A stretch of 64,000 nt of DNA from Candidatus Anderseniibacteriota bacterium (lineage in GTDB: Bacteria; Patescibacteriota; Andersenbacteria; UBA10190): NCBI GenBank assembly GCA_016197005.1, contig JACPWO010000001.1, positions 87,266 through 151,265 of the forward strand, read 5' to 3'. The translations under genes and the position numbers were made by a program. Under the pieces are notes generated by a model that ran no database searches, had not been told where the DNA came from, and was given only the letters and a program-made list of their open reading frames with translations. Below, piece after piece: positions 4 through 19,720 of this stretch. Position 1 is the stretch's first letter, and the number at the start of each line of letters is the position of its first letter.

Positions 4-1107
4 TTGGCAGTATGGAGTGCCGTTTCAGCCCTTCGAGCTGATTCCTATATCCTGGGAATGCTGCGCCTACGAGACATTGGTCTGTACATGATGCTGTACT
101 TTGCCGTCCTGTACCTACCTAAACACACAAGTGAGGCCATGAGACGTCGTCTTCTCTGGTTTACGATTGGTGTGGTAATAACGTTGGGGCTAGCCGCCTG
201 GCAGTGGTTCTTTTCGGTGGATAGCGCGGTACTACGGTTTGACCCAGTTCGAGAGATTTGGATTCCCCGTATTTCCAGTATTTTGGCCCATCCCAGTATT
301 TACGGGGAATACCTTATTGCTGCATTCACGTTGTTTGTTTCAATTGTGGTGTATGGGCAGAGAAATAAGCAATGGTGGTTTATCCTCCTGACAGTTCTTA
401 CGCTGCCAGCTATATTCCTGACATATTCACGCGCCGTGTGGATTGGCACCGCCGCAGCAGTTGCTGCCATGGCCTTTGTGTACATGCTTCGGATTTTTCG
501 TGGTCGTCTGGTAAATACCGTCAACAAAGTAAATACGAGACGAAAATCACTGATGATTATCGTGAGTGTGATTGTATGTATCGCTGTCGGTACTCTTCTC
601 CTTCGTTTTACACCAGCGGGTGGCCTCGTCAGATCTATTTTTGATCCAACATATCAGAGTAACGAAGAGCGTGTGGAGTTTTTCGTTCGCCTTATTGCTC
701 CACTTTCAAATACAGAAGCCGTGGTTGGTAGGGGACTTGGTGATGTAATCGCTCAGAATTTTCGAGAGGTTGATCTTGAAGCCTATGATATTGCTGCGGG
801 AGCGTCCCGAGCAGTACAGCTCACGAAAAATACAACTCTAGTAGATAACCAATACCTCAAAACATTTATTGAGATGGGAGTTGTAGGAATTGTGCTTTAC
901 TTGTGGTTGTACTGGCGTGTTGCGGTAACCGCTATTCAATCGGTAAAATCTAGTTCGGATTCTCTGTTAGGCGTTGTGGGGTTATGGGCGGTTGGATTTG
1001 TCGCGGCCTTTGCTATCCAAGCTCTCTTTATAGATATCTGGGATATATTTCCGACGAACGCGTTATTTTGGATCAACGCCGCTTTATTGACTTCTACGAA
1101 AAAATAG
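4..1107 (+). CDS. O-antigen ligase/polymerase-like polytopic membrane protein (5' end truncated by window edge)
   Basis: Long ORF running from the window edge. Multiple hydrophobic helices with a large loop, architecture typical of the WaaL/O-antigen polymerase family. Followed by an RBS-like GGAGAG and the next ORF. Confidence 0.45.
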   Translation: MAVWSAVSALRADSYILGMLRLRDIGLYMMLYFAVLYLPKHTSEAMRRRLLWFTIGVVITLGLAAWQWFFSVDSAVLRFDPVREIWIPRISSILAHPSIYGEYLIAAFTLFVSIVVYGQRNKQWWFILLTVLTLPAIFLTYSRAVWIGTAAAVAAMAFVYMLRIFRGRLVNTVNKVNTRRKSLMIIVSVIVCIAVGTLLLRFTPAGGLVRSIFDPTYQSNEERVEFFVRLIAPLSNTEAVVGRGLGDVIAQNFREVDLEAYDIAAGASRAVQLTKNTTLVDNQYLKTFIEMGVVGIVLYLWLYWRVAVTAIQSVKSSSDSLLGVVGLWAVGFVAAFAIQALFIDIWDIFPTNALFWINAALLTSTKK

Positions 1108-1527: not shown

Positions 1528-1540
1528 CAAGATCATTGCG

Positions 1541-1569
1541 AGCGAGAGTTTTTTCTCTCGCTTTTTTAT
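1541..1569 (+). terminator. rho-independent terminator
   Basis: AGCGAGAG-TTTTTT-CTCTCGCT hairpin followed by TTTTTAT. Lies between convergent genes. Confidence 0.55.
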
Positions 1570-1581: not shown

Positions 1582-2604
1582 TTAGAAACCTCGCCTTTTC
1601 TTCCGCCACATATCAATAAGCCACATTTTCCAATATCCAAATGATAACGGCAGATCCTGAGCATGCAGATAATCAATCGCGTAACCGCCAAACCCTTTTT
1701 TGAATGTTGTTATGCCAGCAAAAGGATGATTCGGTTCATTATCCGGGGCTATACCCCAGAAGTTGTATTGCGTAGCACCTCGTCTTTCTGCTTCCTTAAT
1801 TGTTTCCCATTGTAATAGTTGGGCGGCAGGAATTGATGTTGAGAGTTTAAGAGAAGCTCCGTGGTAATAGAAAACAGTATCGCCGAAGTGCATAAGCATC
1901 GCCCCGGCTACATCTTTTCCGTCATGTGAAGCTATTACAAAAAACATGTTATTCTCTTTGGAAAATTCTTCTGCCTGCGTCTGCAAAAAGCTGCGAGAAA
2001 AAGGAACAAAACCATGTCGATCTTTAGTTGTCTCGTAAAGCGGCCAAAACCGATCAAGCCCAGTTTGTATGTCAGTCACAATTTCTACCTGCACATTGGC
2101 CTGCTGTGCTTTTTTAATAGCGTGACGAGTAGTCTTACGCATGCCGGCTAAAATTTCCTCCTCACTTTTATAAATACTAAGCACCCATGTAAGTTCAGCA
2201 TGAATGTGTAAAGGCGCTGGACGAAAACCAGCCTCACTAAAAACAGCAACCGACTCAGGAGAAGTTTCAGTCAAAGGTGCTATTCGGAGAGCAGCTACCT
2301 GTTCTTTCGTTGCGTTTTCTTTAGCGTAGGCAACTAACTCAGCGACAGCTGTCTTTAATGGTAAGGGCGACTGAATGATTGGTCCGTGAGGAATAAGAAA
2401 GAATTTTCCGCGGCGAGCATTCACGGTGATAACGAGCGCAACGCCCTGCAGCTGTTGCCCTTCGTAAAAACCAAGGTAGCGGATGTTTTCACCCGTACGC
2501 TTCTGTACTTGGCCCCATTGCCATGATTGCAAAAACGTATTCGGCTTCACCTCACCCAAAAATCTGTCCCACTGCTCTTTATCTGTTATTTCAAGAATTT
2601 GCAT
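1582..2604 (-). CDS. FemAB-family peptidyltransferase (peptidoglycan interpeptide bridge formation)
   Basis: N-terminal SWQWGQ and the GKFFLIPHGP region are typical of FemABX/MurM aminoacyl-tRNA-dependent transferases. Confidence 0.7.
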   Translation of the reverse strand: MQILEITDKEQWDRFLGEVKPNTFLQSWQWGQVQKRTGENIRYLGFYEGQQLQGVALVITVNARRGKFFLIPHGPIIQSPLPLKTAVAELVAYAKENATKEQVAALRIAPLTETSPESVAVFSEAGFRPAPLHIHAELTWVLSIYKSEEEILAGMRKTTRHAIKKAQQANVQVEIVTDIQTGLDRFWPLYETTKDRHGFVPFSRSFLQTQAEEFSKENNMFFVIASHDGKDVAGAMLMHFGDTVFYYHGASLKLSTSIPAAQLLQWETIKEAERRGATQYNFWGIAPDNEPNHPFAGITTFKKGFGGYAIDYLHAQDLPLSFGYWKMWLIDMWRKKRRGF

Positions 2605-3835
2605 AAGTTTTCATAAAAGTAATCACTGTTTCCACCTGAGCATCATTCATCCGAGGGTAGGTGGGGAGATTAATAACATGAACAGCGGCTTCTTCCGCAA
2701 CCAGGCAGCTACCGGTTATGTACCTAAAATCCGAGAGATTTGAACTACCAGGCATAAGTGCACCGTCATACCAATCGCCGAGCAGTATTCCCTGTTGTTG
2801 TGCTTTCTTCAAAAATCCTTTTTTATCTGACACACGCACCGGTAGACGGAGCCAGGCTGGCTCGCTGAGGGAAGCGATCTGAGGAAGATCAAAAGAAGAT
2901 AGTGTCCCCAGGGCATTCATATATCGCCGGGCAATATCTCGGCGACGAGCTAAGGCGTAAGAAAACTTTTTGAGTTGGACATGAGCCAGAAAGGCGAGAG
3001 CAGGAGCATATACCCAATCAATATGACTGGGTTTTCCACCCGTTTTTTCTGGGGTCTCATATGCTCGGCTGAGCAATCCTACCTTTTGAGCCAACACAAG
3101 AATGGCCTTACCAATACCGATCGTGTAGAGAGGAAGAATTAACGAAAACAAAATAGGGTGAAGTAATTGTTGGGCAACCCACTTCGGCGATGGGTTTGTT
3201 CGCACAGCTTGTAATGCTTTTAGTTTTGTAAAAAGCTGATCGTTATTTGTTGCAATAGCACCGCCAAAGACAGAAGAAATCATTTTATCTCGCCCAAAGC
3301 TCATAAAAGAGATATCACCGAATGTGCCGACTGGTTGACCATTATGAAGTGCCCCAAGAGATACGGCGCAATCTTCGATGACTAGTATATTTTTTTCCTT
3401 TCCCAGCCTAACTATTTCTTCTATCGGCCCCGGAATACCGAACGTGTGTTGAATAATAATTGCTCTGGTGCGAGGAGTTATCCGGCTCCGTATATTTTCT
3501 ACTGAGAGGTTATATGTGCGAGCGTCAATGTCGACATATATCGGCGTGGCACCTGCCCACATAATACTTTCAGGAACAGCGATACAGGTAAATGCTTGTA
3601 GAATAACTTCATCCCCGGCACCAATATTGGCCGCGAACAGTATGTCCGCTAGCGCCTGACGGCCAGAGGAGGCAAGAAGAACCCGTCTACCCGCTAAGAT
3701 TTGAGAAACTTGGCGACGCACTTGTTCGAGAATTTCTTTATTTTCTCGCACCGATGACATCAGCAGAGCCCTTAGGGCAGCCCGAACATCTTCGGAGGTG
3801 GTATTAGGCGAGAGCGAGATTGCAATTGGCTTCAT
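2591..3835 (-). CDS. DegT/DnrJ/EryC1/StrS-family PLP-dependent sugar aminotransferase
   Basis: Fold-type I aminotransferase core with the conserved Lys context (SFMSFGRDKMIS) and glycine-rich PLP pocket. Its 14-nt overlap with the downstream FemAB gene suggests an operon. Confidence 0.75.
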   Translation of the reverse strand: MKPIAISLSPNTTSEDVRAALRALLMSSVRENKEILEQVRRQVSQILAGRRVLLASSGRQALADILFAANIGAGDEVILQAFTCIAVPESIMWAGATPIYVDIDARTYNLSVENIRSRITPRTRAIIIQHTFGIPGPIEEIVRLGKEKNILVIEDCAVSLGALHNGQPVGTFGDISFMSFGRDKMISSVFGGAIATNNDQLFTKLKALQAVRTNPSPKWVAQQLLHPILFSLILPLYTIGIGKAILVLAQKVGLLSRAYETPEKTGGKPSHIDWVYAPALAFLAHVQLKKFSYALARRRDIARRYMNALGTLSSFDLPQIASLSEPAWLRLPVRVSDKKGFLKKAQQQGILLGDWYDGALMPGSSNLSDFRYITGSCLVAEEAAVHVINLPTYPRMNDAQVETVITFMKTYANS

Positions 3836-3845
3836 GCACTAGACC

Positions 3846-5435
3846 CTAGCGGATGAGCGCATTTCGTACAACTTCAGGGACACGACCTTCAAAGAGGGTA
3901 ACAGTGCCTGATCCCACGCTTGCCGTAACAGTAGTGGTAAGTTCTTCGGATCGCGTAAACCAAAGCGCATTCTTTTGCTTTTTCCCCATTCCTTGACGAA
4001 TGTCGTGCTCATGCGCTTTCCCAAAAATTAAGACAGACGCACCACTGGCCGCTAGTGCTTGGCCCAGTCGCCGGTGTACACCTTTTCCTTCACGACCCAA
4101 TTCAATGATTGGTACAAACACGATGCGTTTATCTTCGGCATCAAATGCTTTCAGCTGCTCTAGCGCATTTAAAGCTGCCGCTTCGCCACCCGAATAACTG
4201 TCATCAATGACGACGGAACCACGAAGACCAGGCACAATGTGCATAGTTCGCGAAAGAGGCTTAAGACGACGCAGTGCAGCAAAAATATTTTTCGCTGGCA
4301 CATTGAGTGCACTCGCTGTGGCCGCTGCTGCTAAGGCACTATTCAATGCTGCCCGACCGGCTAGCGGGAGTGTGATTCGCTGCTGATTCTCACCAATATG
4401 CAGGAGAGCAGAAATCGATTGGGGAGAAAGAGAAATATCCTCAGCATATACATCGGCTCGGGTTTTCATTGAATACGCAACGACGGGAACTTTAGCCGTT
4501 TTGCTTCGCGTACGAATACGCTCATCATCCTTATTTACAACCGCCACGCCTTCAGATGGTAAGCCCTTTATTAACTCCCATTTGGCGGCCGCCAGGGCAG
4601 CAGTTGATCCAAAAAGTGCCGCGTGTTGATTAGAAATTGCGGTAACAACTCCAATACGGGGACGAGTAAGTTGAACAAGCGCAGCAATTTCTCCACGACG
4701 GTACGCAGCCATCTCGGCAATGTAAATTTCTGGTTCTTTCCGCAACTGTTCAATCATATCTTGGGCAACGGCGAACTCACTATTACGATGAGCACGGGTG
4801 GCCCGCACATTCAGCCCAGCTTGCTTGAGGATCTGGTACAAAAATTCTTTTGTAGAAGTTTTGCCAAAACTACCAGTAATACCAACCACTTTCATTTGTT
4901 GACGACTATCTCTCAATCGTGAAGCTTCTGCGATAATAGAACGTTTGCGAATACCGGCGACAGCATTGGCAAAAAGAACACATACGGCTGCAGCGGCAGG
5001 TAAAAAGAAGAGGAGGGTAGACAGCTGCAGGGCCGGATACAGTGGACTTCGCACTACCATCAGTAAAAGACCAATGACGACAGCGGCCAGAAGAAGTAAT
5101 AGAATTCCTGCTTTCGGAGTAATGTGGGGGCGGTAAATACCCGTGACCATCGCTTCGTACGCATATTTTAAAGCAAGCAGTATCAAGGCGGCGAAACCAA
5201 AATAATCTGGTAGCTCTGTAAAACCAGAAATGTACGTTACCCAACCAGCAAAAACACCAGCGGCGAATAATAAGAAAAAAATATCTTGCGTGGGACTGCC
5301 TTCAGGACTGGTTAGATAGGAACGCATTCGATCCCAGCGATATTCTTTTCGCTGCCAAAGGTAAGTTTGACGTAAAATAGAAAGCGTAGCGAGTATGCTG
5401 GCCAGAAGGGAACTTACCAGATAGGGTATCGGCAT
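3846..5435 (-). CDS. MurF-like Mur ligase with an N-terminal ~170-aa 4-helix membrane domain replacing the canonical N-domain
   Basis: Central and C-terminal domains align block by block with MurF: GITGSFGKTSTKE, AEMAAYRRGEIA, TRPRIGVVTAISNQHAALFGS, VVNKDD, LPLAGRAALNSALAAA, DDSYSGG. The first ~170 residues are hydrophobic helices. Confidence 0.7.
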   Translation of the reverse strand: MPIPYLVSSLLASILATLSILRQTYLWQRKEYRWDRMRSYLTSPEGSPTQDIFFLLFAAGVFAGWVTYISGFTELPDYFGFAALILLALKYAYEAMVTGIYRPHITPKAGILLLLLAAVVIGLLLMVVRSPLYPALQLSTLLFFLPAAAAVCVLFANAVAGIRKRSIIAEASRLRDSRQQMKVVGITGSFGKTSTKEFLYQILKQAGLNVRATRAHRNSEFAVAQDMIEQLRKEPEIYIAEMAAYRRGEIAALVQLTRPRIGVVTAISNQHAALFGSTAALAAAKWELIKGLPSEGVAVVNKDDERIRTRSKTAKVPVVAYSMKTRADVYAEDISLSPQSISALLHIGENQQRITLPLAGRAALNSALAAAATASALNVPAKNIFAALRRLKPLSRTMHIVPGLRGSVVIDDSYSGGEAAALNALEQLKAFDAEDKRIVFVPIIELGREGKGVHRRLGQALAASGASVLIFGKAHEHDIRQGMGKKQKNALWFTRSEELTTTVTASVGSGTVTLFEGRVPEVVRNALIR

Positions 5436-5485: not shown

Positions 5486-6448
5486 ATGAATCTAACGATA
5501 CAAATTGTCGGTTGGAATAGTGAAGGTAGTCTCAAGCGCTTACTGCCATTACTTCAAAAGCTGGACGCTGCTATTCCTGTTCGATATATCGATAACGCTT
5601 CAAGCGACGATTCTGTTGCCGTCGTAAAACAATTTCTGCCGCGGGCGGACATTATTACCGTTTCTGAAAACACTGGCTTTTGTAGCGGACATAATATTGG
5701 ATTTGCGGCTTGTGATACTGAATTCGTTCTTGTCCTTAATCCTGACGTTGAAATTGTTTGGGAACAAGTTCAAAAACTACTGCCATTGTTTCAAGACAAA
5801 ACAATTGCAGCCGTGCAAGGAAAACTTATGCGGAATGCCGTCGGCATTCTTGATTCCACCGGCGTTGTTCAAACAATTACACTTAATGGAAAAGAGCGTG
5901 GGGCAGGAGAAAAAGATACCGGACAGTATAACCAGCCAGCTCATGTGGCTGCCACTACTGGAGCATGCAGTATCTATCGCACCTCGGCTCTTCGTCGCGT
6001 AGCGCACGGCACCTATACGACCGCGGGACACTCTGCCTTAGAGGTGTTTGATAAAGATTTCTTTGCTTATAAGGAAGATGTGGACTTGGGTTGGCGTCTT
6101 AGAAATGCCGGGTTCACTAATCAGTATCTGCCGGTACGAGTAGGTACCCATCCTCGAGCCATGCGAACTATTGGTAGAGCAGGTTGGGGAATTATTCCTT
6201 CGCACATAGTAGACCGCCTACGAAACGTGACGACTCGTTGGTCCCTACGCAATTACGTCTGGATGATTGTAAAGAATGCTTCGGCGAAAAAAATATTTCT
6301 TCATGAAATTTTTATTGATGCACGACTTGGAGTATTCATTCTTCTCTCTCTTGTATACTGGCCCCTCTTATCGGTTTGGCTTGACATTTTCCAGAAATTA
6401 CCTCTAATGATGGAGAAACGCTATGAAGCTCGCCATTATCACCGTTAA
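5486..6448 (+). CDS. glycosyltransferase family 2
   Basis: GT-A N-terminal pattern (IVGWNSEGSLKRLLPLL, DNASSDDS, DxD-like LNPD). Confidence 0.65.
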   Translation: MNLTIQIVGWNSEGSLKRLLPLLQKLDAAIPVRYIDNASSDDSVAVVKQFLPRADIITVSENTGFCSGHNIGFAACDTEFVLVLNPDVEIVWEQVQKLLPLFQDKTIAAVQGKLMRNAVGILDSTGVVQTITLNGKERGAGEKDTGQYNQPAHVAATTGACSIYRTSALRRVAHGTYTTAGHSALEVFDKDFFAYKEDVDLGWRLRNAGFTNQYLPVRVGTHPRAMRTIGRAGWGIIPSHIVDRLRNVTTRWSLRNYVWMIVKNASAKKIFLHEIFIDARLGVFILLSLVYWPLLSVWLDIFQKLPLMMEKRYEARHYHR

Positions 6449-7262
6449 TTATAAGTCGCGGATTCTAACCGCTTCTCTTATTGAATCTCTTCTGCGCGCA
6501 AATCTTCCCAAGCAGGTAGAGATTATTGTCGTAGATAACAACTCTCAAGATAACAGCGTAGAACTCCTGCGTTCTGATTTTCCTGAAGTAACTGTTATTG
6601 CTAATGAGGAAAACCTGGGGTTAGCGGGTGGAGTAAATACGGCCATGAAAAGCGTGAAGAGTGACTATTACCTTATTCTCAATCCTGATATGACCGTGGA
6701 GCCCGATGCGGTGACCAAGCTTGTTGCGTTTATGGACAGGAATGAAACGGTTGGCATGGCCGGTGGAAAGCTTCTGTCACCGGGCGGCGAACTTCAAGCT
6801 TCTTGCTTCCGTTTTTATACACCCATGATTATCGTGTATCGCCGTACGTGGCTAGGAAAAACAAAGCGAGGACAAAAAGCACTTAGTGAATTTCTGATGG
6901 AAGACTTCGATCACGCCTCCGCCGTCGATGTCGATTGGCTCATGGGTGCCTGCCTTATTGTTCGAGGGAAAGCCATCACCCAAGTAGGCGGTATGGATGA
7001 ACGGTATTTCATGTATTTTGAAGACGTAGATTGGGGACGACGAATGTGGGAAGCTGGCTGGCGCGTGTCGTATGTACCGGACGCACGTTTTTCTCATTTC
7101 CATCAGCGCAGCAGCGAGCAAGGAATTTTAAGCTACTTCACTAACCGACCGACCCGCGAACATATCAAGTCCGCCTTAAAGTATTTCTGGAAATACCAGG
7201 GAAAGCGTTACAATGGCACACATGGCACAGCATCTGCCGACAATAAAACTGGATCAGTTTGA
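6423..7262 (+). CDS. glycosyltransferase family 2
   Basis: AIITVNYKS, VVDNNSQDNS and DPD/ED motifs typical of GT2. Overlaps the previous GT2, consistent with an operon. Confidence 0.7.
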   Translation: MKLAIITVNYKSRILTASLIESLLRANLPKQVEIIVVDNNSQDNSVELLRSDFPEVTVIANEENLGLAGGVNTAMKSVKSDYYLILNPDMTVEPDAVTKLVAFMDRNETVGMAGGKLLSPGGELQASCFRFYTPMIIVYRRTWLGKTKRGQKALSEFLMEDFDHASAVDVDWLMGACLIVRGKAITQVGGMDERYFMYFEDVDWGRRMWEAGWRVSYVPDARFSHFHQRSSEQGILSYFTNRPTREHIKSALKYFWKYQGKRYNGTHGTASADNKTGSV

Positions 7263-8467: not shown

Positions 8468-9364
8468 ATGACACTTACAAGTACACTAGTAGCCGCTACC
8501 TTTTGCGCTCTCCTGCAACAACCACTGACCGAGTGTGTTGTCAGTAACAACACACCGGCAGCGGTCGCCGGTATTCAAACAATTACTACTCCTCAGCACA
8601 CGGGGGAAGCAGTTGATGTGGTATTAACCGCTCAGGCCGCCATTGTTTGGGACGTTGCCACCGGCACAATTTTATATGAAAAGAATGCAGATAGTCAGCG
8701 CCCAGTTGCTTCCTTAAGTAAGTTGGTGAGTGCGTTGACCATTCGATCGCTGATGGCGCCAGCAACAATTGTGGAAATTTCGCCAGCCGTTCGATCAGCC
8801 CAATTATCTGGAGCAAACATTAAGTTACCTATCGGTCAGCACGCCACCGTTCAAGAACTGCTGGAGGCGGGCATGATTGCATCTGCTAACGACGCGATGG
8901 TAGCGCTGGCCGAAGCAAGCAGTGGGAGCGAACAGGAGTTTGTAACATATGCAAATGCTCACGCCGCGGAATTGGGTCTTAGCCATACTCAACTTGCCAA
9001 CGCGACTGGTCTGGAGGGTGGCACTCAATACTCAACGGCACGAGACATAATGCAGGCGATGAAGCGAGTATATAGTGACTCACTATTGCGATCGTTTATG
9101 GATCAGAAAAGCGGGGTGCTGGTAACGGAAGAAGGTGCTCGCCGGGCATACGAAACAACCAATGACCTTATTGGCACTTATATGCCCATTTTGGCCGGGA
9201 AGACCGGCTACACGTTGGAGGCTGGGGAAAACCTAACTATTATTACTCGAGATAGCGCTGGTCACACGATTGGAGCAGTGGTTCTCGGCTCAGATCAGCG
9301 CTTTCAGGATATGAAAGTACTAGTCGAGTGGGTGTGGCGGAACTATACTTGGCATACGCTGTGA
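8468..9364 (+). CDS. D-alanyl-D-alanine carboxypeptidase (peptidase S11, PBP5/6-like)
   Basis: Signal peptide followed by SxxK (ASLSKL), SxN (SAND) and KTG (KTGYT) motifs in the correct order. Confidence 0.75.
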   Translation: MTLTSTLVAATFCALLQQPLTECVVSNNTPAAVAGIQTITTPQHTGEAVDVVLTAQAAIVWDVATGTILYEKNADSQRPVASLSKLVSALTIRSLMAPATIVEISPAVRSAQLSGANIKLPIGQHATVQELLEAGMIASANDAMVALAEASSGSEQEFVTYANAHAAELGLSHTQLANATGLEGGTQYSTARDIMQAMKRVYSDSLLRSFMDQKSGVLVTEEGARRAYETTNDLIGTYMPILAGKTGYTLEAGENLTIITRDSAGHTIGAVVLGSDQRFQDMKVLVEWVWRNYTWHTL

Positions 9365-10434
9365 CATTTGGATTTTTCGAAAACCCAGAACAAATAATAA
9401 GCGTGGCACGGGTGCTCGGCACCGGGGCTATTAACTTTTTGGCGGCATTTGCCCTCATGCCCCTCGTGATAAAGCTACTTAACTCCTGGCGGTTCGCAAA
9501 AAACATTCGTAATGATGGCTTGACTCCAATTTACTCAAGTCTCCACTTAAAAAAGGCCGGCACACCGGTTGGGGGTGGTATCCTGGTCTGGGGAACCGTG
9601 GTGATACTGGCAATTCTATTTTGGATTCCAGCAGTTCTCTATCCTTCCAATCCTACGCTGACGTTGAATTTTCTAACTCGTCCCCAAACCCTACTCCCAA
9701 TAGGTGCACTGCTGGCCGCAGCATTAGTAGGTTTGGCCGACGACTATTTTAATGTTCGTGGCTACGGCCCGAAAGGTGGCGGACTACGTATGTGGCACCG
9801 CATTATTTTATATACCGTAGTAGCTGGTTTTGGTGCCTGGTGGTTTTTCTACAAACTTGAATGGAGCTTAATTCATGTCCCGGGAGTTGGAGACTTTGAA
9901 ATTGGCTGGTGGTATATCCCGCTATTCATTTTTGTTATTGTCTCAACTGCTTTTTCGGTGAATGAAGCAGACGGGCTGGATGGTCTAGCTGGTGGTATTC
10001 TCTTATTTTGCTACGGGGCATTTGCTGCGTATGCCTTCCATATTGGCAGGGTGGAGCTGGCAATGTTCTGTGCGGCCATTGTTGGATCGCTTTTAGCATT
10101 CTTATGGTTCAACGTCTATCCGGCTAAGTTTTTTATGGGAGATACGGGGGCGATGAGCCTTGGGACAACCCTGGGAGTTATGGCCATGCTTACGAATACC
10201 GCCTTAGTGTTACCAATTATTGCGTTTCCCTTAGTAGTTGAATCCTTATCCGTCATTATTCAACTTCTCTCCAAGAGGTTCTTAGGCAGAAAAATATTTC
10301 GCTCGACACCCCTTCATCATCATTTTGAGGCATTAGGTTGGCCAGAGACTCAAGTAACAATGCGATTCTGGATTGTGGCAGCAGTTTCGGCCGGACTTGG
10401 GCTAGTAATTGCTCTTCTTGGTAAAGGGGCATGA
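9361..10434 (+). CDS. mraY: phospho-N-acetylmuramoyl-pentapeptide transferase MraY
   Basis: NEADGLDGLAGG and the DD(Y)xN motifs. Proposed GTG start overlaps the dacA-like stop (GTGA). The start is uncertain, since the track ORF begins at 9328. Confidence 0.8.
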   Translation: MTFGFFENPEQIISVARVLGTGAINFLAAFALMPLVIKLLNSWRFAKNIRNDGLTPIYSSLHLKKAGTPVGGGILVWGTVVILAILFWIPAVLYPSNPTLTLNFLTRPQTLLPIGALLAAALVGLADDYFNVRGYGPKGGGLRMWHRIILYTVVAGFGAWWFFYKLEWSLIHVPGVGDFEIGWWYIPLFIFVIVSTAFSVNEADGLDGLAGGILLFCYGAFAAYAFHIGRVELAMFCAAIVGSLLAFLWFNVYPAKFFMGDTGAMSLGTTLGVMAMLTNTALVLPIIAFPLVVESLSVIIQLLSKRFLGRKIFRSTPLHHHFEALGWPETQVTMRFWIVAAVSAGLGLVIALLGKGA

Positions 10435-11798
10435 CAAATTCTCTTAAAAATAAGCGCGTGACCGTGATGGGTCTCGGCCTTCATGGCGGAGCGTTGGGAA
10501 CTATTTCATGGCTGGTGAAGCAAGGAGCAAAAGTGACCGTGACGGATATGAAAAGTGAAGAACAACTTGCCTCATCGCTAAAACAACTTGGAAAACTTAA
10601 GAATATAAATTTTGTTTTAGGTCAGCACCGCACCGAGAATTTCACCAATACGGATTTAGTTATTCGCAATCCTGCGGTACCAAAAAATTCTCCCCACCTG
10701 CAAGCTGCTCGGAAAGCTGGCGTGGCAATCGAAATGGATAGCAGTTTATTTTTCTTATATTCACCAACGACAGATATTATTGGTGTTACTGGTTCCAAAG
10801 GTAAAACTACTGCTTCGCATGCCATCGCTCATATATTAGGAGCAACAAGGGTGGGGACGGATGGTGTATCTCCGCTCGGTGAGGTAGCAAAACTAAAGGA
10901 AAACTCAACGGTGGTATTCGAACTTTCTAGCTGGCGCCTGGAAGCACTTACGTCGCACAAGATAAGTCCGCCAGTAGCGGTGGTGACATCAATATATCGT
11001 GAACATTTAAATACGTATACGGATTTACCAGAGTACATTGCGGCCAAAAAGGGAATTATTCGTTACCAGAAAGCGGAGGATACCGCCATCCTTAACTATG
11101 ATGATGCAGAACTGCGAACATGGGAGTCAGAAGTACAAGGAACATTGTATTGGTTTTCCCTCAAGGAATTGCCGTCAGGAAAAGAGGGGATCTACCGGCA
11201 AGATGGACAAGCAGTTGTGCGGATAAAAGATAAAGAAATTTCTATTCCCTTACATACGCTCGCACTGCAGGCTGATCACGAGCAACGGAATGTTTTGCCA
11301 GCTATTTTAATTGCGTGCCAGCGAGGAGTAAGTTCAGAAAAAATTACGGCAGCCCTTACTAGCCTTCCACGACTTTCTCATCGCCTGGAAATAATTCGAG
11401 AACTTAACGGTGTTACCTATATCAATGACTCGGCTTCAACCATGCCTGATGCAACCATTGCGGCTCTCCAGAGTCTTGCCGGAAAATCACTCGTCCTCAT
11501 TCTCGGTGGTAGTGACAAGAAACTGGAATTCAAAGAATTAGGAACAGCGGTGGATGCAGCCGATGTTCGCGCTATTGTTTGGTTGCCTGGCTCCGCAACT
11601 GCTCGTATGAAAAGTGAGACACAAAAGGAAGTACCACAAACTGGAGCTGAAACTATGACTGAGGCGGTTACACAAGCAGCGACAATAGCACAAAGCGGTG
11701 ACACCGTTCTTTTGTCTCCGGGTGCAACAAGCTTTGGCCTCTTTAAGCACGAATTTGATCGCGGCGATCAATTTCGGCAAACCGTTAGCACTCTCTAA
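10431..11798 (+). CDS. murD: UDP-N-acetylmuramoylalanine--D-glutamate ligase MurD
   Basis: MurD N-terminal Rossmann (VMGLGLHGG) and Mur ligase P-loop GVTGSKGKTT. ATGA overlap with mraY. Confidence 0.85.
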   Translation: MTNSLKNKRVTVMGLGLHGGALGTISWLVKQGAKVTVTDMKSEEQLASSLKQLGKLKNINFVLGQHRTENFTNTDLVIRNPAVPKNSPHLQAARKAGVAIEMDSSLFFLYSPTTDIIGVTGSKGKTTASHAIAHILGATRVGTDGVSPLGEVAKLKENSTVVFELSSWRLEALTSHKISPPVAVVTSIYREHLNTYTDLPEYIAAKKGIIRYQKAEDTAILNYDDAELRTWESEVQGTLYWFSLKELPSGKEGIYRQDGQAVVRIKDKEISIPLHTLALQADHEQRNVLPAILIACQRGVSSEKITAALTSLPRLSHRLEIIRELNGVTYINDSASTMPDATIAALQSLAGKSLVLILGGSDKKLEFKELGTAVDAADVRAIVWLPGSATARMKSETQKEVPQTGAETMTEAVTQAATIAQSGDTVLLSPGATSFGLFKHEFDRGDQFRQTVSTL

Positions 11799-11842
11799 CG
11801 GAGTTGGCGGAAAGATGAGGCCAATACGGTATACTGCGTAGC

Positions 11843-12949
11843 ATGTCCAGAACGCCAGATCTTATCCTTCTTTTTAGTATTTTAGGTCTCACCATTTTTG
11901 GCATGGTGATGGTGGGAAGTGCGTCGACCGTTCAGGCCGAGCAACTAACTGGGGACCCGTTCTTTTTCTTAAAACATCAGCTTCTGTACGGTGGAACCGT
12001 TGGCTTCGCTCTCTTTGTAACGGCCTTCATTGTGCCATATCGTTTCTGGCAAAAGTTGGCGCTGCCAGCCTTAGTCGGTGCTCTCATCTTACTTGCTCTG
12101 GTGTTTATTCCTGGACTTCAAGTGGAGTCCGGCGGCGCAGCGCGTTGGATTGGATTTGGTCCGGTCACTATCCAACCGAGCGAAATAGCGAAATTGGCTT
12201 TTATTTTATACTTAGCAGCTCTGCTTGAGCGAAAAGGGGAAGATATACGGGATTTTAGAAAAAGCGTGATGCCGTTTCTCATGATCACGGCTGCTATTTC
12301 TTTTTTGATTATTCTGCAACCAGATATAGGAACTTTGTTTGCTATTACTGCCATCGCGGCGGCTATGGTATTCGCAGCTGGGTTTCGCCTACGCCATCTT
12401 GCCCTCATTGGTGGTCTGGGGGTAGCAGCTTTTGCATTACTCGTAAGCACCGCAAGTTACCGTTTATCTCGTATCTTCGTCTATTTGCATCCTGAGCTTG
12501 ATCCACAGGGTATTGGCTACCAAATTAATCAAGCTCTCTTGGCAGTAGGTAGTGGTGGAGTATTCGGACTTGGATTTGGACGCAGCCGCCAAAAATATTT
12601 ATTTCTACCGGAACCGGCTAGCGATAGTATTTTTGCAGTCGCAGCAGAAGAGCTGGGATTGGTTCGGACAATTGGCATTCTCATTGTTTTTGCAGTGATT
12701 GGTATTCGTGGCTATCGTATCGCCGCCTTAGCTCCAGATATGTTTGGTCGTCTCTTAGCGGTCGGAATTACCTCATGGATTGTGATGCAAGCATTTGTAA
12801 ACATAGGAGCAATTCTGGCGATTATTCCACTTACTGGTATTCCACTGCCGTTTATTAGTTACGGCGGATCCGCTCTCGCAACACTATTATTTGCATCGGG
12901 CATTCTTCTTAATATCTCAAAACACACCCAACCGCTCACGAGTCGATAG
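11843..12949 (+). CDS. ftsW: SEDS-family peptidoglycan glycosyltransferase FtsW
   Basis: 10-TM FtsW/RodA family. Its position between murD and murG in the dcw cluster points to FtsW. Confidence 0.8.
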   Translation: MSRTPDLILLFSILGLTIFGMVMVGSASTVQAEQLTGDPFFFLKHQLLYGGTVGFALFVTAFIVPYRFWQKLALPALVGALILLALVFIPGLQVESGGAARWIGFGPVTIQPSEIAKLAFILYLAALLERKGEDIRDFRKSVMPFLMITAAISFLIILQPDIGTLFAITAIAAAMVFAAGFRLRHLALIGGLGVAAFALLVSTASYRLSRIFVYLHPELDPQGIGYQINQALLAVGSGGVFGLGFGRSRQKYLFLPEPASDSIFAVAAEELGLVRTIGILIVFAVIGIRGYRIAALAPDMFGRLLAVGITSWIVMQAFVNIGAILAIIPLTGIPLPFISYGGSALATLLFASGILLNISKHTQPLTSR

Positions 12950-12995
12950 GATCTTAATAGTTACAAGTGCCCCGTTACTGGGTACTATATAGCTC

Positions 12996-14174
12996 ATGCG
13001 AATTGTACTCACAGGTGGTGGTACCGGCGGTCATATTATTCCCTTCGAACCGATAGTCGAAGCTCTGCGTACGCAATTTATGGAGCGAGGCAAGTCTCTG
13101 CCCAAGTGGCTTGACCCAGAGACATTGGAGCTTGTCTTCGTTGGGGTCGTTACGCCTGAAGTCTCCGATCTTTTCTCTCGTTACTCCGTCCCAGTACGAA
13201 ATGTTCCGTCAGGGAAACTACGCCGGTACGCTTCTGGTCAGAATATTATTGATATTCTTTTTCGCGTACCGATCGGCATTCTGCGCGCCCTCATTGTCAT
13301 ATGGCAACTCATGCCGGATGTCATCATTAGTAAGGGCGGATACGGTAGCTTGCCAATAGTACTCGCAGCGATGGTCTACCGCATTCCTGTACTTGTGCAC
13401 GAATCTGATGTCGTACCGGGAGCGGCAAATTCATTATTGTTTCGTTTTGCCGCTGCAATAACAGTTGGATATGCACATACTCTTCAATCAATGAGCCGGT
13501 GGGTGAAGAAAAGTTACCTAACCGGTACTCCTGCTCGCAGCCAGCTCCGTAATCTTTCGGCAACCGATGGCAAACGAGCCTTTGGTATTCCCGAAAATGA
13601 ATTTGTTTTATTGGTATTCGGTGGCAGCCAGGGCGCGCAACAATTAAATGAAGCCTTACTAAAAATTCTTCCTCGTCTCATCCCAGACGTCGCCATCATT
13701 CACGTTACTGGGGAAGAACACTTTAACTCCGTTTCAACTGTTGCCAAAGAAATACTTGGACATAGCCCTCGCCAAGATCTTTATCAGGTTCATGGATATC
13801 TTAAGAACAACATGCTGTTGGCCCTGGCCGCTGCTGATGCCATCGTTAGTCGCGCGGGAGCTACTACTCTCAGTGAATTAGCTGCTGCTCGAAAGCCAGC
13901 CCTGCTGATTCCGCTAGCTAACGCCGCGCAAGATCACCAACGTAAGAACGCCCAACTGTTTGAGGCCGCTGGCGCGGCATTAGTACTTGATCCAACGAAC
14001 ATGGGCATGAACTTGTTTGAGCAAAATATTCGTCGCCTTATTTCTCACGACCAACTACGACAAACCCTCATTAAAAACTTAGCTCAACTTGACGCACCCG
14101 AGGCAGCCCGTAAGATTGCCGGGATGGCATTTAACTTAGCGCAGGGACTGCGACCAAGCGCCGGAAAAAAGTGA
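12996..14174 (+). CDS. murG: undecaprenyldiphospho-muramoylpentapeptide beta-N-acetylglucosaminyltransferase MurG
   Basis: N-terminal GGGTGGHIIP signature, GT28 family. dcw synteny. Confidence 0.85.
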   Translation: MRIVLTGGGTGGHIIPFEPIVEALRTQFMERGKSLPKWLDPETLELVFVGVVTPEVSDLFSRYSVPVRNVPSGKLRRYASGQNIIDILFRVPIGILRALIVIWQLMPDVIISKGGYGSLPIVLAAMVYRIPVLVHESDVVPGAANSLLFRFAAAITVGYAHTLQSMSRWVKKSYLTGTPARSQLRNLSATDGKRAFGIPENEFVLLVFGGSQGAQQLNEALLKILPRLIPDVAIIHVTGEEHFNSVSTVAKEILGHSPRQDLYQVHGYLKNNMLLALAAADAIVSRAGATTLSELAAARKPALLIPLANAAQDHQRKNAQLFEAAGAALVLDPTNMGMNLFEQNIRRLISHDQLRQTLIKNLAQLDAPEAARKIAGMAFNLAQGLRPSAGKK

Positions 14175-15454
14175 ATCTCGCAAGTTCCAAGGTAGTATTT
14201 CTGCACGGCATTGCTGGTACTGGCATGCGCGGGTTGGCGTGGCTGTTATCCGAAAGTGAGAAAGAAATTCGCGGGACAGACGCAACTCCTTCTGCCCTTA
14301 CTGATGTGCCTATAGAATTTACTGTGACGACTGAAGACAAAGCTCCGTCTCTTCTTCTCGGAGTAGATGTATATATTTATTCTGATGCTGTTCTTCCAAC
14401 TCATCCCTTGCGCCAGCTGGCTGAGAAACAAGGAATTTTGTCGTTGTCGTACCAAAAAGCGTTAGGTGAACTGACGAGCGCCTACCGACTTATTGCGGTC
14501 ACCGGCACACACGGTAAATCTTCTACGACGGCATTTTTAGCACATATCTTGCGTGTCACCGGACATGATCCATCCGCTTTGGTCGGAGCGGGTATACCGG
14601 CTTGGCCAGGGAAGCACGCCCTCAGTGGAACGAGTGATGTATTTGTTGCCGAGGCTGATGAATACCGGAATCACTTTCACGAACTTACTCCGGCAGCAGC
14701 TATTATTACCGCTATTGAGTATGATCATCCGGACTTTTTTACGTCAGAAGAAGATATGTGGAAGTCGTACCAGACCTTTATTAACCTTTTGCCGTCAGAT
14801 GGGTTTCTTATTATTCCCAGCACTCTTCGCCGTCTGCCCCTGAGCTGGCCGGACATTACATTAGAAGTAGAAATAGATCACGATTTACCGGATGCACCCA
14901 TTCCCGGAAAACACATGCAGGCTAACGCTAAACTTGCTATATCTGCAGCGAAACAGTTGGGAGTAGATGAAAGACAATCGCAGGCGGCTCTCAAAACATT
15001 CACCGGCCTTAGCCGTCGCTTTGAAACAGTAGGCAAACTTGGTGACATGACCGTCATTTCAGACTACGGCCATCACCCTACAGAAATTGCAGCTACACTC
15101 ACCGCTGTTCGGGAAAGGTTCCCCGACAAAAAGGTGGTTGCTGTTTTTGAAGCTCATATGGCCGAGCGGATGCAAGCCTTTAACCATGAATTTGCGAAAG
15201 CACTCAGCATCGCTGATGCCGTCATTATCTACCCACCCTATTTACCCGCTGGACGAGAAGGAAGCGCCGCCAATGTACTCCGTGATCAACTCGTCGAGGC
15301 AATACAACAACACAAAACCCCAGTAACAGTGCTGCACCATGCAAAAGAATTGTTTAGTGCTTTAGACCGCTATAAAGACACATACGATATTGCGATCGCT
15401 TGCACGGCCGGGCGTCTCGATGCTGACCTAAGGACAGTTGTTTTGCCCCGCTAA
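14171..15454 (+). CDS. murC: UDP-N-acetylmuramate--L-alanine ligase MurC
   Basis: Mur ligase P-loop AVTGTHGKSSTTA and MurC N-domain GIAGTGM. ATGA overlap with murG. Confidence 0.85.
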   Translation: MNLASSKVVFLHGIAGTGMRGLAWLLSESEKEIRGTDATPSALTDVPIEFTVTTEDKAPSLLLGVDVYIYSDAVLPTHPLRQLAEKQGILSLSYQKALGELTSAYRLIAVTGTHGKSSTTAFLAHILRVTGHDPSALVGAGIPAWPGKHALSGTSDVFVAEADEYRNHFHELTPAAAIITAIEYDHPDFFTSEEDMWKSYQTFINLLPSDGFLIIPSTLRRLPLSWPDITLEVEIDHDLPDAPIPGKHMQANAKLAISAAKQLGVDERQSQAALKTFTGLSRRFETVGKLGDMTVISDYGHHPTEIAATLTAVRERFPDKKVVAVFEAHMAERMQAFNHEFAKALSIADAVIIYPPYLPAGREGSAANVLRDQLVEAIQQHKTPVTVLHHAKELFSALDRYKDTYDIAIACTAGRLDADLRTVVLPR

Positions 15455-16657: not shown

Positions 16658-17968
16658 ATGGTGCAAGCACTCGCCCCCTTACAAGCGGGGCAAGCGTCAT
16701 TAAGCTTCGTATCCTTTTTTGAAACATTTGGTCCAGCGTTTTTAGCACTGGGCTGGTTTATAGTGCTCTGGATGCTCATGTGGCTGGCTTGGAATGTATA
16801 TTTACTCCTGCGGCGTATTGATTATTCCAGTGCTATTCAGTGGACGTTCTTGGAAGTAAAGATTCCACCAGATAGCGAAGAGACACCAAAATCGATGGAG
16901 CTGTTTTTTGAGATCATAGCTGGTATGCACAAAACGCCAGATAAAACAGAACTTTATTTTGACGGAATGATGGAGCCCTGGATTTCCTGTGAGATTCAGT
17001 GCACGCAAGGGAAGGTACGTTATTTCTTAGTCATTCAGACACCGTACCGACAATTCATTGAAGGAGTACTCTATGGTCAATTTCCACGAGCGGAGATAAC
17101 TGAGGCGGAAGATTATACGCTGAAATATAATTGGAAAGAAATTCGCAAAAAATTTGATTTGTTTGGCACTGAGGTAGTGATGACCGGTGAAGAGTTTTAT
17201 CCCATTCGCACCTATCTAGAATACGAAACGAAATTAGCAGAGGAAGATAAATACATCGATCCACACCAAGGTATTGTGGAAACGTTTACCGCGATAAACC
17301 CTGGAGAAGAATTTTGGTTGCAGATTATTGTCCGTCCAATTGATGCCGGCACGATTAAAAAATGGGCAGAAAAAGGACAACATGAGATTGCCCTTATTTC
17401 CGGACAAGCTAAGAAGGAAGGTCCAGGAATACTGGCAAGTTTAGGCGACTTTTTTGTAAGCTTGCCGGGTGCCCTTATCAGTGCATTTATGACTGGACCA
17501 ACTGAAGCGAGCAGCAAAGATGAATACCAGCTACGTTTCTTTAACCCGACTGATGAAGCGAAAATGAAGGGTATTCTGCAAAAAGTCTCCAAAGCTGGAT
17601 TTAAGACGAAGATACGAGTGCTTCATATTGCTCCGGCTGGGCAACTCCAGAAGCCAAACATTGGTCGCGCCTTTGGTGCATTTAAGCAATTTAACACCTT
17701 CCATTTGAACAGTTTGAAGCCAGACTCAGCTACTAAATCTAACGGCCCCAACTACATCGCCCGTGATAGTCGCCGTGCGCTCCGGGAACGAAAAATCTTC
17801 TTGCAGTATCAGTGGCGCGAGATATGGTATGGCGATGGCAAAATGTTTAATGCGGAGGAACTGGCTACGCTGTATCATTTCCCATCAAAGTACGTGAAAA
17901 CTCCTGGCCTTGCTCGATCTAAATCTGGCCTCCAAGCGCCGCCTGATAATTTACCGTTGGCCGGCTAA
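16658..17968 (+). CDS. hypothetical membrane-anchored protein (N-terminal TM hairpin, large soluble domain)
   Basis: Hydrophobic segment FLALGWFIVLWMLMWLAWNVYLLL followed by ~380 soluble residues. Only a 6-nt gap to the downstream ATPase gene. Confidence 0.4.
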   Translation: MVQALAPLQAGQASLSFVSFFETFGPAFLALGWFIVLWMLMWLAWNVYLLLRRIDYSSAIQWTFLEVKIPPDSEETPKSMELFFEIIAGMHKTPDKTELYFDGMMEPWISCEIQCTQGKVRYFLVIQTPYRQFIEGVLYGQFPRAEITEAEDYTLKYNWKEIRKKFDLFGTEVVMTGEEFYPIRTYLEYETKLAEEDKYIDPHQGIVETFTAINPGEEFWLQIIVRPIDAGTIKKWAEKGQHEIALISGQAKKEGPGILASLGDFFVSLPGALISAFMTGPTEASSKDEYQLRFFNPTDEAKMKGILQKVSKAGFKTKIRVLHIAPAGQLQKPNIGRAFGAFKQFNTFHLNSLKPDSATKSNGPNYIARDSRRALRERKIFLQYQWREIWYGDGKMFNAEELATLYHFPSKYVKTPGLARSKSGLQAPPDNLPLAG

Positions 17969-17974
17969 TATTCT

Positions 17975-19720
17975 ATGGAAAAGATTACTGTTGTTGGACA
18001 AACAAATTTCCGCGGACAGCACCGTCCGTTCGGTATCTATGAGGACGATCGTCGTCGACACTTATATATCATCGGAAAAACTGGTGTCGGCAAAACTACG
18101 CTTATTGAAAACATGATTTTGCAGGACGTAGCGAACGGCAAAGGCGTTGCCCTCGTTGACCCACACGGAGACGTGGCTGAGCGTGTCCTTGAATCCATTC
18201 CACCAGAGCGCATCAATGACGTTATTTACTTTGATCCCGCTGACGTTGAACATCCCATTGCTTTTAACGTTCTGGAAGCAGTTGACCCACAGTACAAATA
18301 CCTAATCGCGTCAGGGCTCGTCAGCTCGCTTAAGAAAATATGGGCAGATTCATGGGGACCTCGGCTAGAGTACATTCTGCGTAATACAATTTTGGCACTC
18401 CTTGATTATCCTGGCAGCACGATGCTCGGGATCATGCGCCTGCTTGCGGATAAAGAGTACCGCAAGAAAGTAGTCGAGAAGATTCAGGATCCGGTAGTAA
18501 AGTCTTTTTGGATTAATGAGTTTGCCAATTACAACGAACGGTTCCGCTCTGAAGCTATTTCCCCAATTCAGAACAAGGTTGGACAGTTCTTGTCATCAGC
18601 CATCATTCGTAATATTGTGGCCCAGCCTAAAAGCACAATTGATATGAATGCGGTTATGAATGAAGGCAAGATTTTACTCATGAACGTTTCAAAAGGACGC
18701 ATCGGCGAGGATAACTCAGCTCTCCTAGGGGCTATGCTTATTACCAAGCTCCAACTAGCCGCCATGGACCGCGCTAAGATGCCAGAAGAAGAGCGTCGGG
18801 ATTTTTACCTCTACGTCGATGAGTTTCAAAACTTTGCAACTGAATCGTTTGCTACCATTTTGTCTGAAGCTCGTAAGTATCGCCTCAATCTCATCATTGC
18901 CCATCAGTACATTACACAGATGGAGGAAGAAGTGCGCGACGCCGTCTTCGGAAACGTCGGCACCCTTATCTGTTTCCGGATTGGTGCGTTTGACGCTGAG
19001 TTTCTGGAAGCGGAATTTGCTCCCGAATTTACTCCGGCCGATCTCGTAAACCTGGATAAATATAATGCGTACATAAAACTCATGATTAACGGCGTGACCA
19101 GCCCACCTTTTTCGATGCAAACAATTCCGCCTTCCAGTGAAACGTTTAACAGTCGTGAGAAGGTTATTAAAGTATCTCGAGAACGATATACCAACCCGCG
19201 TTCAGTGGTCGAGGAAAAAATTGCTCGCTGGAGTGGCCTAGCCTTCGAGGAAGAAGGGAAAGCGGCAGGACGAGACACGTACGAACGCCCACGCGAACAA
19301 CAGCGTCGCCGGCAAGAGCCACCAAGACAGGTACAAGTTAATGAAGCAAAGCTTGAAGACATTGTTATAAAGCCAAAAGAAGAAATTACTGACTTAGCAG
19401 CGCTCCTGCGTGGACCCCAAAACGAATCTCGTCCGCAGAACCCGCAGGGTGGGGAGAGAAAAAAGAGGCAAACCAAGTCGTATCCAGCCGTTTGTTCTGA
19501 CTGTAAAAAGAATACCGATGTACCTTTTAAACCAGATCCTGAGAAACCAGTATATTGCAAAGAATGTTTTGAGAAACGGAAAGCAGCGGGCACTCTTCCC
19601 CGCAAAGAAGAGAAAAAACCAGAGAATGTGCGTCAGAGTACACTCCAAAAACCTATTTCTCCTCCATCTCGCCCAGCGAGCGCCTTTACCGGACCCCCGC
19701 CACCCCCGCTGCCACAATAG
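17975..19720 (+). CDS. type IV coupling protein-like (TraD/TraG/VirD4-family, AAA-like) ATPase with C-terminal zinc ribbon
   Basis: Walker A IIGKTGVGKTT followed by the VALVDPHGD block, typical of the TrwB/TraG AAA-like domain. Walker B-like FYLYVDEFQNF. C-terminal CSDC-x17-CKEC and a Pro-rich tail. Confidence 0.6.
   Translation: MEKITVVGQTNFRGQHRPFGIYEDDRRRHLYIIGKTGVGKTTLIENMILQDVANGKGVALVDPHGDVAERVLESIPPERINDVIYFDPADVEHPIAFNVLEAVDPQYKYLIASGLVSSLKKIWADSWGPRLEYILRNTILALLDYPGSTMLGIMRLLADKEYRKKVVEKIQDPVVKSFWINEFANYNERFRSEAISPIQNKVGQFLSSAIIRNIVAQPKSTIDMNAVMNEGKILLMNVSKGRIGEDNSALLGAMLITKLQLAAMDRAKMPEEERRDFYLYVDEFQNFATESFATILSEARKYRLNLIIAHQYITQMEEEVRDAVFGNVGTLICFRIGAFDAEFLEAEFAPEFTPADLVNLDKYNAYIKLMINGVTSPPFSMQTIPPSSETFNSREKVIKVSRERYTNPRSVVEEKIARWSGLAFEEEGKAAGRDTYERPREQQRRRQEPPRQVQVNEAKLEDIVIKPKEEITDLAALLRGPQNESRPQNPQGGERKKRQTKSYPAVCSDCKKNTDVPFKPDPEKPVYCKECFEKRKAAGTLPRKEEKKPENVRQSTLQKPISPPSRPASAFTGPPPPPLPQ

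Follow-up and report, generated by a model that had tools for sequence, protein, structure and literature searches.

In bacteria that build a cell wall, the order of the cytoplasmic steps of peptidoglycan synthesis and the three-domain layout of the ligases MurC to MurF are treated as near-universal. MurT, of the MurT/GatD lipid II amidotransferase, has the Mur ligase fold without the uridine diphosphate (UDP)-binding N-domain, and its closest structural relatives are the MurF enzymes. The missing domain has been explained by the membrane-embedded substrate lipid II (PMC6113224); the same structure paper argues that, with lipid II as substrate, a UDP-binding domain would collide with the membrane, and notes that in ligand complexes of MurE and MurF the pyrophosphate of the substrate is found where the N-domain meets the central domain (PMC6113224). 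Natural chimeras of Mur enzymes are also known, among them MurE-MurF, MurD-FtsW and MraY-MurG (PMC10214165). The survey in question screened only proteins of more than 600 amino acids (PMC10214165), and would therefore have missed a form of about 530 residues. Such a form is encoded in a stretch of 64,000 nucleotides from a Candidatus Anderseniibacteriota (Andersenbacteria) contig (JACPWO010000001.1), hereafter called the window. A gene on the minus strand (3846..5435), supported by the list of open reading frames (ORFs), Pfam, NCBIfam and an AlphaFold2 model, specifies a protein of 529 amino acids in which Mur ligase domains follow a membrane domain. We consider that this protein is probably the MurF of the organism, in the form used by its lineage within the Candidate Phyla Radiation (CPR, or Patescibacteria).

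In the literature searched, no prior description was found of a membrane-embedded MurF in the CPR or of the four-gene unit in which it occurs. An initial annotation, made from the letters of the sequence, had proposed a MurF-like ligase with a membrane domain instead of its N-domain, in an operon with a DegT-family and a FemAB-family gene, and this was borne out by the ORFs, Pfam, the NCBIfam murF model TIGR01143 and AlphaFold2.

The ligase and its membrane domain

The Mur ligase central (ATP-binding) domain is found at residues 186-374 (4314..4880, minus strand; Pfam Mur_ligase_M, 126.6 bits) and the Mur ligase C-terminal domain at residues 398-517 (3885..4244, minus strand; Pfam Mur_ligase_C). 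The best NCBIfam model for the protein is murF TIGR01143, with 224.6 bits over profile positions 62-405 of 418, compared with 93.5 bits for murD, 80 for murC and 65.5 for murE, and TIGR01143 is the best model for distant members of the family too. Solved MurF structures were ranked at the top by both phmmer and Foldseek, the match to Acinetobacter baumannii MurF (4QF5) having an E value of 3e-26 and a TM-score of 0.72 on the target. With this enzyme and those of Escherichia coli (1GG4), Pseudomonas aeruginosa (4CVK) and Thermotoga maritima (3ZL8) the protein has in common the central and C-terminal domains, the P-loop, the Mg-binding Glu and His and the Lys of AKxE. The CPR form differs from them in having no UDP-binding N-domain, but instead a membrane domain of three or five helices with invariant motifs of its own.

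The P-loop reads TGSFGKTSTK (residues 187-196) and contains K192. In an alignment of 120 homologues this lysine is invariant, as are E241 and H271, which are the Mg-binding Glu and His positions, and K285, which sits in AKWE at the position of the carbamyl-lysine. DDSY, ELG and H454 are nearly invariant in the same sequences, and are represented in the C-terminal domain of the window ligase by DDSYSGGE (derived from the DDSYNANP of MurF), P442-x-IELG and H454. Judged by its sequence, the part from about residue 180 to 529 is a MurF-type Mur ligase descended from MurF, in which the residues predicted to carry out the ligase chemistry (the P-loop, the Mg-binding Glu and His and the Lys at the carbamyl position) are retained.

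The motifs specific to MurF are common to the wider CPR family. Members from outside the Andersenbacteria (L006, L007, L034, L038 and L041), when aligned with the solved MurFs, keep or nearly keep DDSYNANP, much of GxHNxxN, xN(I/V)NTEIGVA (canonical GNLNNDIGVP), AKxE and ELG. The Andersenbacteria branch, to which the window ligase belongs, is derived at these positions, with DDSYSGGE, GRAALNS and HRNSEFAVA, and the window ligase also has PIIELG in place of the canonical GDMxELG. The loss of GxHNxxN in this branch is one of the points that could be cited for a catalytically altered protein which no longer performs the MurF reaction, and whose membrane domain acts as a scaffold organising a complex of MurE, MraY, DegT and FemX proteins. 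Contacts between MurE and MurF through the N-terminal region of MurF are documented (PMC10214165), and the CPR MurE, itself without an N-domain as described below, might dock on a partner. A scaffold of this kind is nevertheless very unlikely, since the invariance of K192, E241, H271 and K285 across the 120 sequences, together with the near-invariance of DDSY, ELG and H454, points to retained catalysis.

The N-terminal membrane domain occupies residues 1-176 (4908..5435, minus strand; hydropathy and AlphaFold2). The initial annotation had counted four hydrophobic helices; hydropathy and the AlphaFold2 model give five membrane helices, at about residues 3-23, 52-69, 75-97, 107-127 and 134-160, within a full set of helices at 3-29, 34-41, 52-69, 75-97, 107-127, 134-143 and 145-176. 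The full-length model has a mean pLDDT (predicted local distance difference test) of 96.4 and a pTM (predicted template modelling score) of 0.93, and the membrane domain alone reaches a pLDDT of 92. In this model helix 145-176 leads directly into strand 182-187 and the P-loop, and the membrane domain joins the ligase at exactly the boundary between N-domain and central domain. Lys and Arg are clustered in the loops 22-51 and 98-108 and past residue 160, and by the positive-inside rule we infer that the N-terminus lies outside and that the ligase domains are cytoplasmic.

Two motifs stand out in the alignments of this domain, both placed by the positive-inside rule on the cytoplasmic side, beside the helix that leads into the ATP domain. 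Motif 1, W27-Q-R-K-E-Y-R-W-D-R36 (5328..5357, minus strand), lies in the predicted cytoplasmic loop that follows the first transmembrane helix (TM1) and has the consensus L-W-Q-R-K-E-Y-R-x-D-R (WQxKEYRxDR), in which W, Q, K, E, Y and the final R do not vary across the phyla of the CPR. Motif 2, R102-P-H-I-T-P-K108 (RPxxTxK; 5112..5132, minus strand), is placed in the loop, also predicted to be cytoplasmic, that connects TM3 with TM4, and its P and T are likewise invariant across CPR phyla. In the 3-TM variants P0384 (469 amino acids) and P0430 (483 amino acids) the hairpin of TM2 and TM3 is deleted and motif 1 is joined straight to motif 2, which fits the location of both motifs on one side of the membrane, the cytoplasmic one.

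No match to Pfam or NCBIfam, and in particular no Mur N-domain, was found for residues 1-168, and Foldseek gave no fold match with E<1 for the membrane domain among the solved structures of the PDB (best E about 1). An exhaustive search with a profile of the membrane domain only returned 720 clusters, 196 of them at E<=1e-10. The full-length proteins matched are of about 490-600 amino acids with the domain at their N-terminus, and all ten of those sampled carry Mur_ligase_M behind it; in this search no fusion of the domain to another enzyme was seen. The membrane domain is thus a structured element with invariant motifs, and more than an anchor. This also sets the protein apart from the known Mur chimeras. 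Both join a Mur ligase covalently to a cell-wall module, and MurD-FtsW is likewise a Mur ligase fused to a membrane protein, but the chimeras combine two complete known enzymes, whereas in the window ligase a membrane domain, which our searches found nowhere else, stands in for one of the ligase's own domains.

More than 100 homologues of 500-540 amino acids cover 95-100% of the window ligase. A mis-called start or a frameshift separating the gene from an upstream canonical N-domain, which the initial annotation had named as a possible refutation, was rejected on account of these homologues and of the gap of only 50 bp between the ligase start codon and the divergent gene for a family 2 glycosyltransferase (GT2). 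Since the same architecture recurs on hundreds of independent contigs and AlphaFold2 models the protein as a single confident chain, there is hardly any probability left for an artefact of gene calling, or for an assembly error that fused two genes.

Distribution and gene neighbourhoods

For the genomic context we gathered 122 loci, amounting to 1.36 Mb, from individual look-ups of homologues, a scan of GTDB (34 loci) and a metagenome scan in which 80 loci were kept from at least 600 matches; these were mapped with phmmer. The organism labels on several contigs of metagenome-assembled genomes are unreliable. Many GTDB records with synteny of the Andersenbacteria type (L008, L010-L014, L017 and others) are titled 'uncultured Candidatus Saccharibacteria', and single contigs with a CPR-type MurF (L033, L034 and P0392) are labelled Woesearchaeota, Limisphaerales or Bathyarchaeia. 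Such deviant labels probably belong to mislabelled or misbinned CPR contigs.

A search restricted to the ligase domain, with the distant member L006 as query, gave among its best 120 matches mostly proteins of 500-570 amino acids, all labelled MurF by their sources, an automatic annotation that hides the distinct architecture. The named sources of these 120 include Gracilibacteria, Pacebacteria, Spechtbacteria, Levybacteria, Daviesbacteria, Nealsonbacteria and Paceibacterota. A hydrophobic N-domain of about 175-220 amino acids was present in all 12 of the long matches retrieved. The motif 1 pattern W-Q-x-K-[ED]-Y-[RH]-x-x-R was found in each of the 11 long matches scanned and the motif 2 pattern P-x-[FLWV]-[TS] in ten of the 11; nine of the long matches were also aligned with the window ligase. 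The shorter matches were considered as candidates for a canonical MurF. This was rejected after five of the shortest, all on long contigs, were retrieved: two are 3-TM variants and three look like truncated gene calls that start inside the domain. No canonical MurF was found among the 120 nearest ligase-domain relatives or in the 1.36 Mb of flanking sequence. The conservation of the fusion in related genomes, a point raised for checking in the initial annotation, extends to more than 100 full-length homologues and, for the membrane domain, to 720 clusters. The membrane-domain architecture is apparently the standard form of MurF across many phyla of the CPR, beyond the Andersenbacteria.

In the window the ligase gene is followed on the same strand by genes for an enzyme of the DegT/DnrJ/EryC1 family (2591..3835, 414 amino acids; Pfam, NCBIfam and alignment) dependent on pyridoxal phosphate (PLP), and for a FemX-like aminoacyl-transferase of the FemAB family (1582..2604, 340 amino acids, without the coiled-coil arm; Pfam and NCBIfam). 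By their ORF coordinates the DegT gene starts 10 nt past the ligase stop and overlaps femAB by 14 nt. This arrangement is widely conserved, with starts and stops of the partner genes close or overlapping. The DegT gene comes next after the ligase at 66 of the 74 loci with room for it by strict criteria, or 71 of 74 once threshold misses were checked, and femAB is next in the unit at 55 of 64 loci. Directly upstream of the ligase, 61 of 98 loci have a co-directional alpha/beta-hydrolase gene. It is absent from all 32 loci of the Andersenbacteria type, where a divergent GT2 pair is found instead, and from five others.

In several CPR lineages femAB is followed by the gene for a protein of about 337 amino acids (L006:13860-14873), with homologues at L072, L081, L089-L091, L105, L118, L121 and L037 and without a Pfam or NCBIfam match, which is a candidate for a fifth component of the unit. 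A 561-amino-acid membrane-domain MurF with the canonical NDSYNAN (L034:9011-10696) has no DegT, FemAB or hydrolase gene adjoining, and L113 and L078 resemble it in this respect. Hence the partner genes are common but not obligatory neighbours.

The position of the gene in several lineages is that of murF itself in the dcw cluster, upstream of mraY. In L113 the order is PBP-murE-murC-murB-murA-[TM-murF]-mraY-ftsW-murG (PBP, penicillin-binding protein), where the ligase gene takes the slot of murF without the partner genes. In the Gottesmanbacteria locus L038 it is ftsI-murE-pgeF-murC-murB-murA-glmU-glmS-hydrolase-[TM-murF]-degT-femAB-dgkA-mraY-ftsW-murG-ftsQ-ftsA; here the gene between murE and murC (1743-2402) matches Cu-oxidase_4 (PgeF/YfiH-type) and that between femAB and mraY (13770-14141) matches DAGK_prokar (DgkA/undecaprenol-kinase-like). 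L092, L100, L112 and L122 have a similar dcw placement with the partner genes present. Elsewhere the unit of ligase, DegT and FemAB genes adjoins murA, mraY or PBP2 genes, without GT2 or Wzy surroundings. A second murF-like ORF was not found in any of the 122 loci. The suggestion of a membrane-tethered MurF variant in the initial annotation gains support from this CPR-wide architecture and from the occupation of murF's slot in several lineages.

The surroundings in the Andersenbacteria are different. As the initial annotation had described, two GT2 genes (5486-6448 and 6423-7262, plus strand; Pfam and locus mapping) diverge from the ligase gene in the window, and GT2, Wzy_C, GT4 and flippase-GT1 fusion genes flank the unit in this group. 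Such neighbours could indicate an accessory Mur-type ligase, with a canonical MurF elsewhere in the genome, that decorates some other lipid-linked glycopolymer or, like MurT, modifies a lipid-linked precursor, for example by placing an amino acid or amide on a free carboxylate of the stem peptide. The missing UDP-binding domain, as in MurT, the derived C-terminal motif and lost HN motif of the Andersenbacteria branch, and the coupling to an aminotransferase and a Fem transferase, both enzymes of the tailoring type, would agree with this. We nevertheless hold it to be unlikely. The GT2, Wzy and flippase genes are neighbours specific to the Andersenbacteria and lie outside the conserved unit; in other CPR lineages, where the unit lies between murA and mraY, no polysaccharide genes surround it, and this cluster was rejected as the functional context. 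An action outside peptidoglycan on an aminosugar, also raised initially, is for the same reason not supported, with the unit recurring beside murA, mraY or PBP2 genes. Moreover, the flanks and the 120 closest ligase-domain relatives contain no other murF-like gene that could serve as the canonical enzyme. The hallmarks of MurT are missing as well: MurT is a soluble protein with a Cys4 zinc ribbon, a DUF1727 C-domain and the glutaminase GatD as partner, whereas the window ligase contains only one Cys, lacks both DUF1727 and a neighbouring GatD gene, and scores 24 bits with the MurT model NF052464 (cutoff 800).

Partner enzymes and proposed function

The DegT protein matches Pfam PF01041 with 199.9 bits (cutoff 19.8). 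With the sugar aminotransferases of the DegT/DnrJ/EryC1 family (QdtB, perosamine synthase, ArnB, PglE) it has in common the PLP-binding large domain with the catalytic Lys and the Asp; K184 (in SFGRDK), the PLP lysine, and D155, which binds the pyridine, are invariant in eight orthologues. It differs from them in a divergent C-terminal part and in an insertion of about 48 amino acids, conserved and hydrophobic or amphipathic in character, within residues ~218-283 (2987..3184, minus strand; hydropathy and alignment). The insertion is present in all eight aligned orthologues and absent from solved structures of the family such as QdtB and perosamine synthase, and may be an element for binding to the membrane or to a partner. 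The gene is moreover tied to murF and femX, not to genes for sugar dehydratases. The FemAB protein matches Pfam PF02388 with 126.7 bits (gathering score 24) and its closest solved relative is Staphylococcus aureus FemX (6SNR), a lipid II:glycine transferase (E 2.7e-16). It is of the size of FemX and has distant similarity to the FemX enzymes, which comprise, besides that of S. aureus, the UDP-N-acetylmuramic acid (MurNAc)-pentapeptide:L-Ala transferase of Weissella viridescens. The alpha/beta-hydrolase is not found in the window; it is encoded at L006:9235-9999, L007:9263-10000, L038:9194-9910 and in most of L045-L124, and shows a weak match to EstV-like lipases.

The substrate of the Weissella FemX, UDP-MurNAc-pentapeptide, is the direct product of MurF, and this makes an operon of murF and femX logical. 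Most likely the DegT and FemX-like enzymes tailor the same precursor on which the ligase acts. By analogy with Weissella, the FemX-like enzyme would act directly after MurF and transfer a branch amino acid from aminoacyl-tRNA. We also considered that the FemX, DegT and hydrolase proteins could form an alternative, tRNA- or PLP-dependent route to the D-Ala-D-Ala dipeptide.

The reaction that we propose for the ligase is the ATP-dependent completion of the peptidoglycan stem peptide with a terminal dipeptide, which would be D-Ala-D-Ala or an equivalent, by way of the usual acyl-phosphate. The UDP-binding N-domain of canonical MurF, of about 60-90 residues, would have been exchanged for the polytopic membrane domain, with five helices here and three in some relatives, so placing the catalytic domains on the cytoplasmic face of the membrane. 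The hold of the N-domain on the diphosphate end of the MurNAc-tripeptide acceptor may be taken over by the two conserved motifs with their basic and aromatic residues, and the product would be released right beside MraY.

Several observations weigh against taking the protein for the MurF of the organism. The TIGR01143 score of 224.6 falls short of the curated cutoff of 288.6, since the window ligase has nothing that corresponds to the first ~61 positions of the profile. In the Andersenbacteria the altered DDSYSGGE and the loss of GxHNxxN (GRAALNS) may mean that the handling of substrate or nucleotide has shifted. Unlike the canonical enzyme, the CPR form is usually co-transcribed with DegT-like and FemX-like genes. 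To our knowledge no enzyme of the DegT family takes part in the stem-peptide steps of peptidoglycan synthesis, and the tight coupling to a transaminase without a known place in the textbook MurF step suggests that the chemistry is not entirely canonical.

Within the assignment to MurF the nature of the acceptor can be read in two ways. We slightly prefer an acceptor that is UDP-linked, with the product passed directly to MraY. A lipid-linked acceptor, raised in the initial annotation, is plausible and has to be taken seriously as an alternative. According to the full form of this idea, which we regard as possible but clearly less probable than not, the stem peptide is completed on the lipid carrier, the two motifs binding the undecaprenyl-diphosphate end of a lipid-linked MurNAc-tripeptide and the DegT-like and FemX-like enzymes tailoring the same lipid intermediate. 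If this were true, MraY would act before MurF, and possibly before MurE, across the whole superphylum.

This idea gains some weight, short of proof, because the CPR MurE has also lost its N-domain. At L007:4623-5936 (minus strand), L038:505-1746, L092, L100, L113, L122, L042 and L043 the MurE has no N-terminal UDP-binding domain and its P-loop stands at residues 32-67, whereas MurC and MurD there keep their N-domains, with P-loops at about 112-168. The match of these MurE proteins to TIGR01085 begins at profile position ~71, with a score still over the cutoff, and this form of 430-450 amino acids is widespread. When a CPR MurE was used as the seed of a search, all the matches were closer relatives of that seed, none of them labelled Andersenbacteria and one labelled Peregrinibacteria; the contexts of two matches show the order murE-truB-mraY, the same as for the seed.

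It appears that in a very large bacterial radiation neither MurF nor MurE has the UDP-binding domain, and that the MurF is integral to the membrane and is accompanied by three conserved partner enzymes for which the textbook pathway has no role. Should the enzyme do no more than tether the last soluble step to MraY, it would be a clear example from nature of a pathway channelled at the membrane; if a lipid-linked tripeptide is the substrate, the accepted order of the pathway changes. The two invariant motifs and the four-gene unit are testable targets, and could help to explain how ultra-small and largely uncultured bacteria build their walls.

Other features of the window

Between the operon and a convergent gene, 19 nt past the femAB stop, there is a GC-rich hairpin (1540..1563, no strand assigned; consensus match only) which is probably the terminator of the three-gene operon. 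On the other side, the run past the GT2 pair comprises scpA, scpB and then the dcw segment (8468..15454, plus strand; ORF list and profile matches), with genes for an S11 DD-carboxypeptidase (8468-9364), mraY (9328-10434), murD (10431-11798), ftsW (11843-12949), murG (12996-14174) and murC (14171-15454), all on the plus strand. The mraY, murD and murC genes give bona fide or near-threshold matches to their models. The ligase gene, which lies on the other strand, is separated from mraY by about 3.9 kb. In agreement with the initial annotation, neither murE nor a canonical murF was found near this cluster, and the window ORFs tested with Pfam, NCBIfam and phmmer included no murE and no second murF-like ORF; nor did the window show ddl, alr or murI.

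The conserved glycopolymer cluster that accompanies the dcw segment in the Andersenbacteria contains a Wzy_C/O-antigen-ligase-like gene, GT2 and GT4 genes and a fusion of about 880 amino acids between a Polysacc_synt flippase and a GT1 domain. It is seen in the window at 4-1107 (plus strand) and at about 14-21.5 kb in L001-L005. Directly past the dcw segment (16658-19720, plus strand) there are genes for a protein of 436 amino acids and, next to it, for a TraG/VirD4-like coupling ATPase which has a treble-clef zinc finger at its C-terminus; the 436-amino-acid protein, whose gene comes first, has no Pfam match in the window, and its counterpart by synteny in L002 is recorded as DUF8128.

Further genes related to the cell wall and cell shape include MurA (30318-31589), two MreB paralogues (31614-32624 and 43563-44621, plus strand), mreC (44623-45387) and a PBP2-type transpeptidase (45802-47622). 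A PEGA-domain protein is encoded at 28923-30266 on the minus strand. The end of the window (57112-64000) probably holds a mobile element that has integrated at a tRNA locus. Here tRNA-Ala genes in tandem (GGC and TGC) precede the genes for a large serine recombinase (58309-59598), a PD-(D/E)XK nuclease and a protein with DUF4268, and the GC content across this region falls from about 0.47 to 0.40-0.42.

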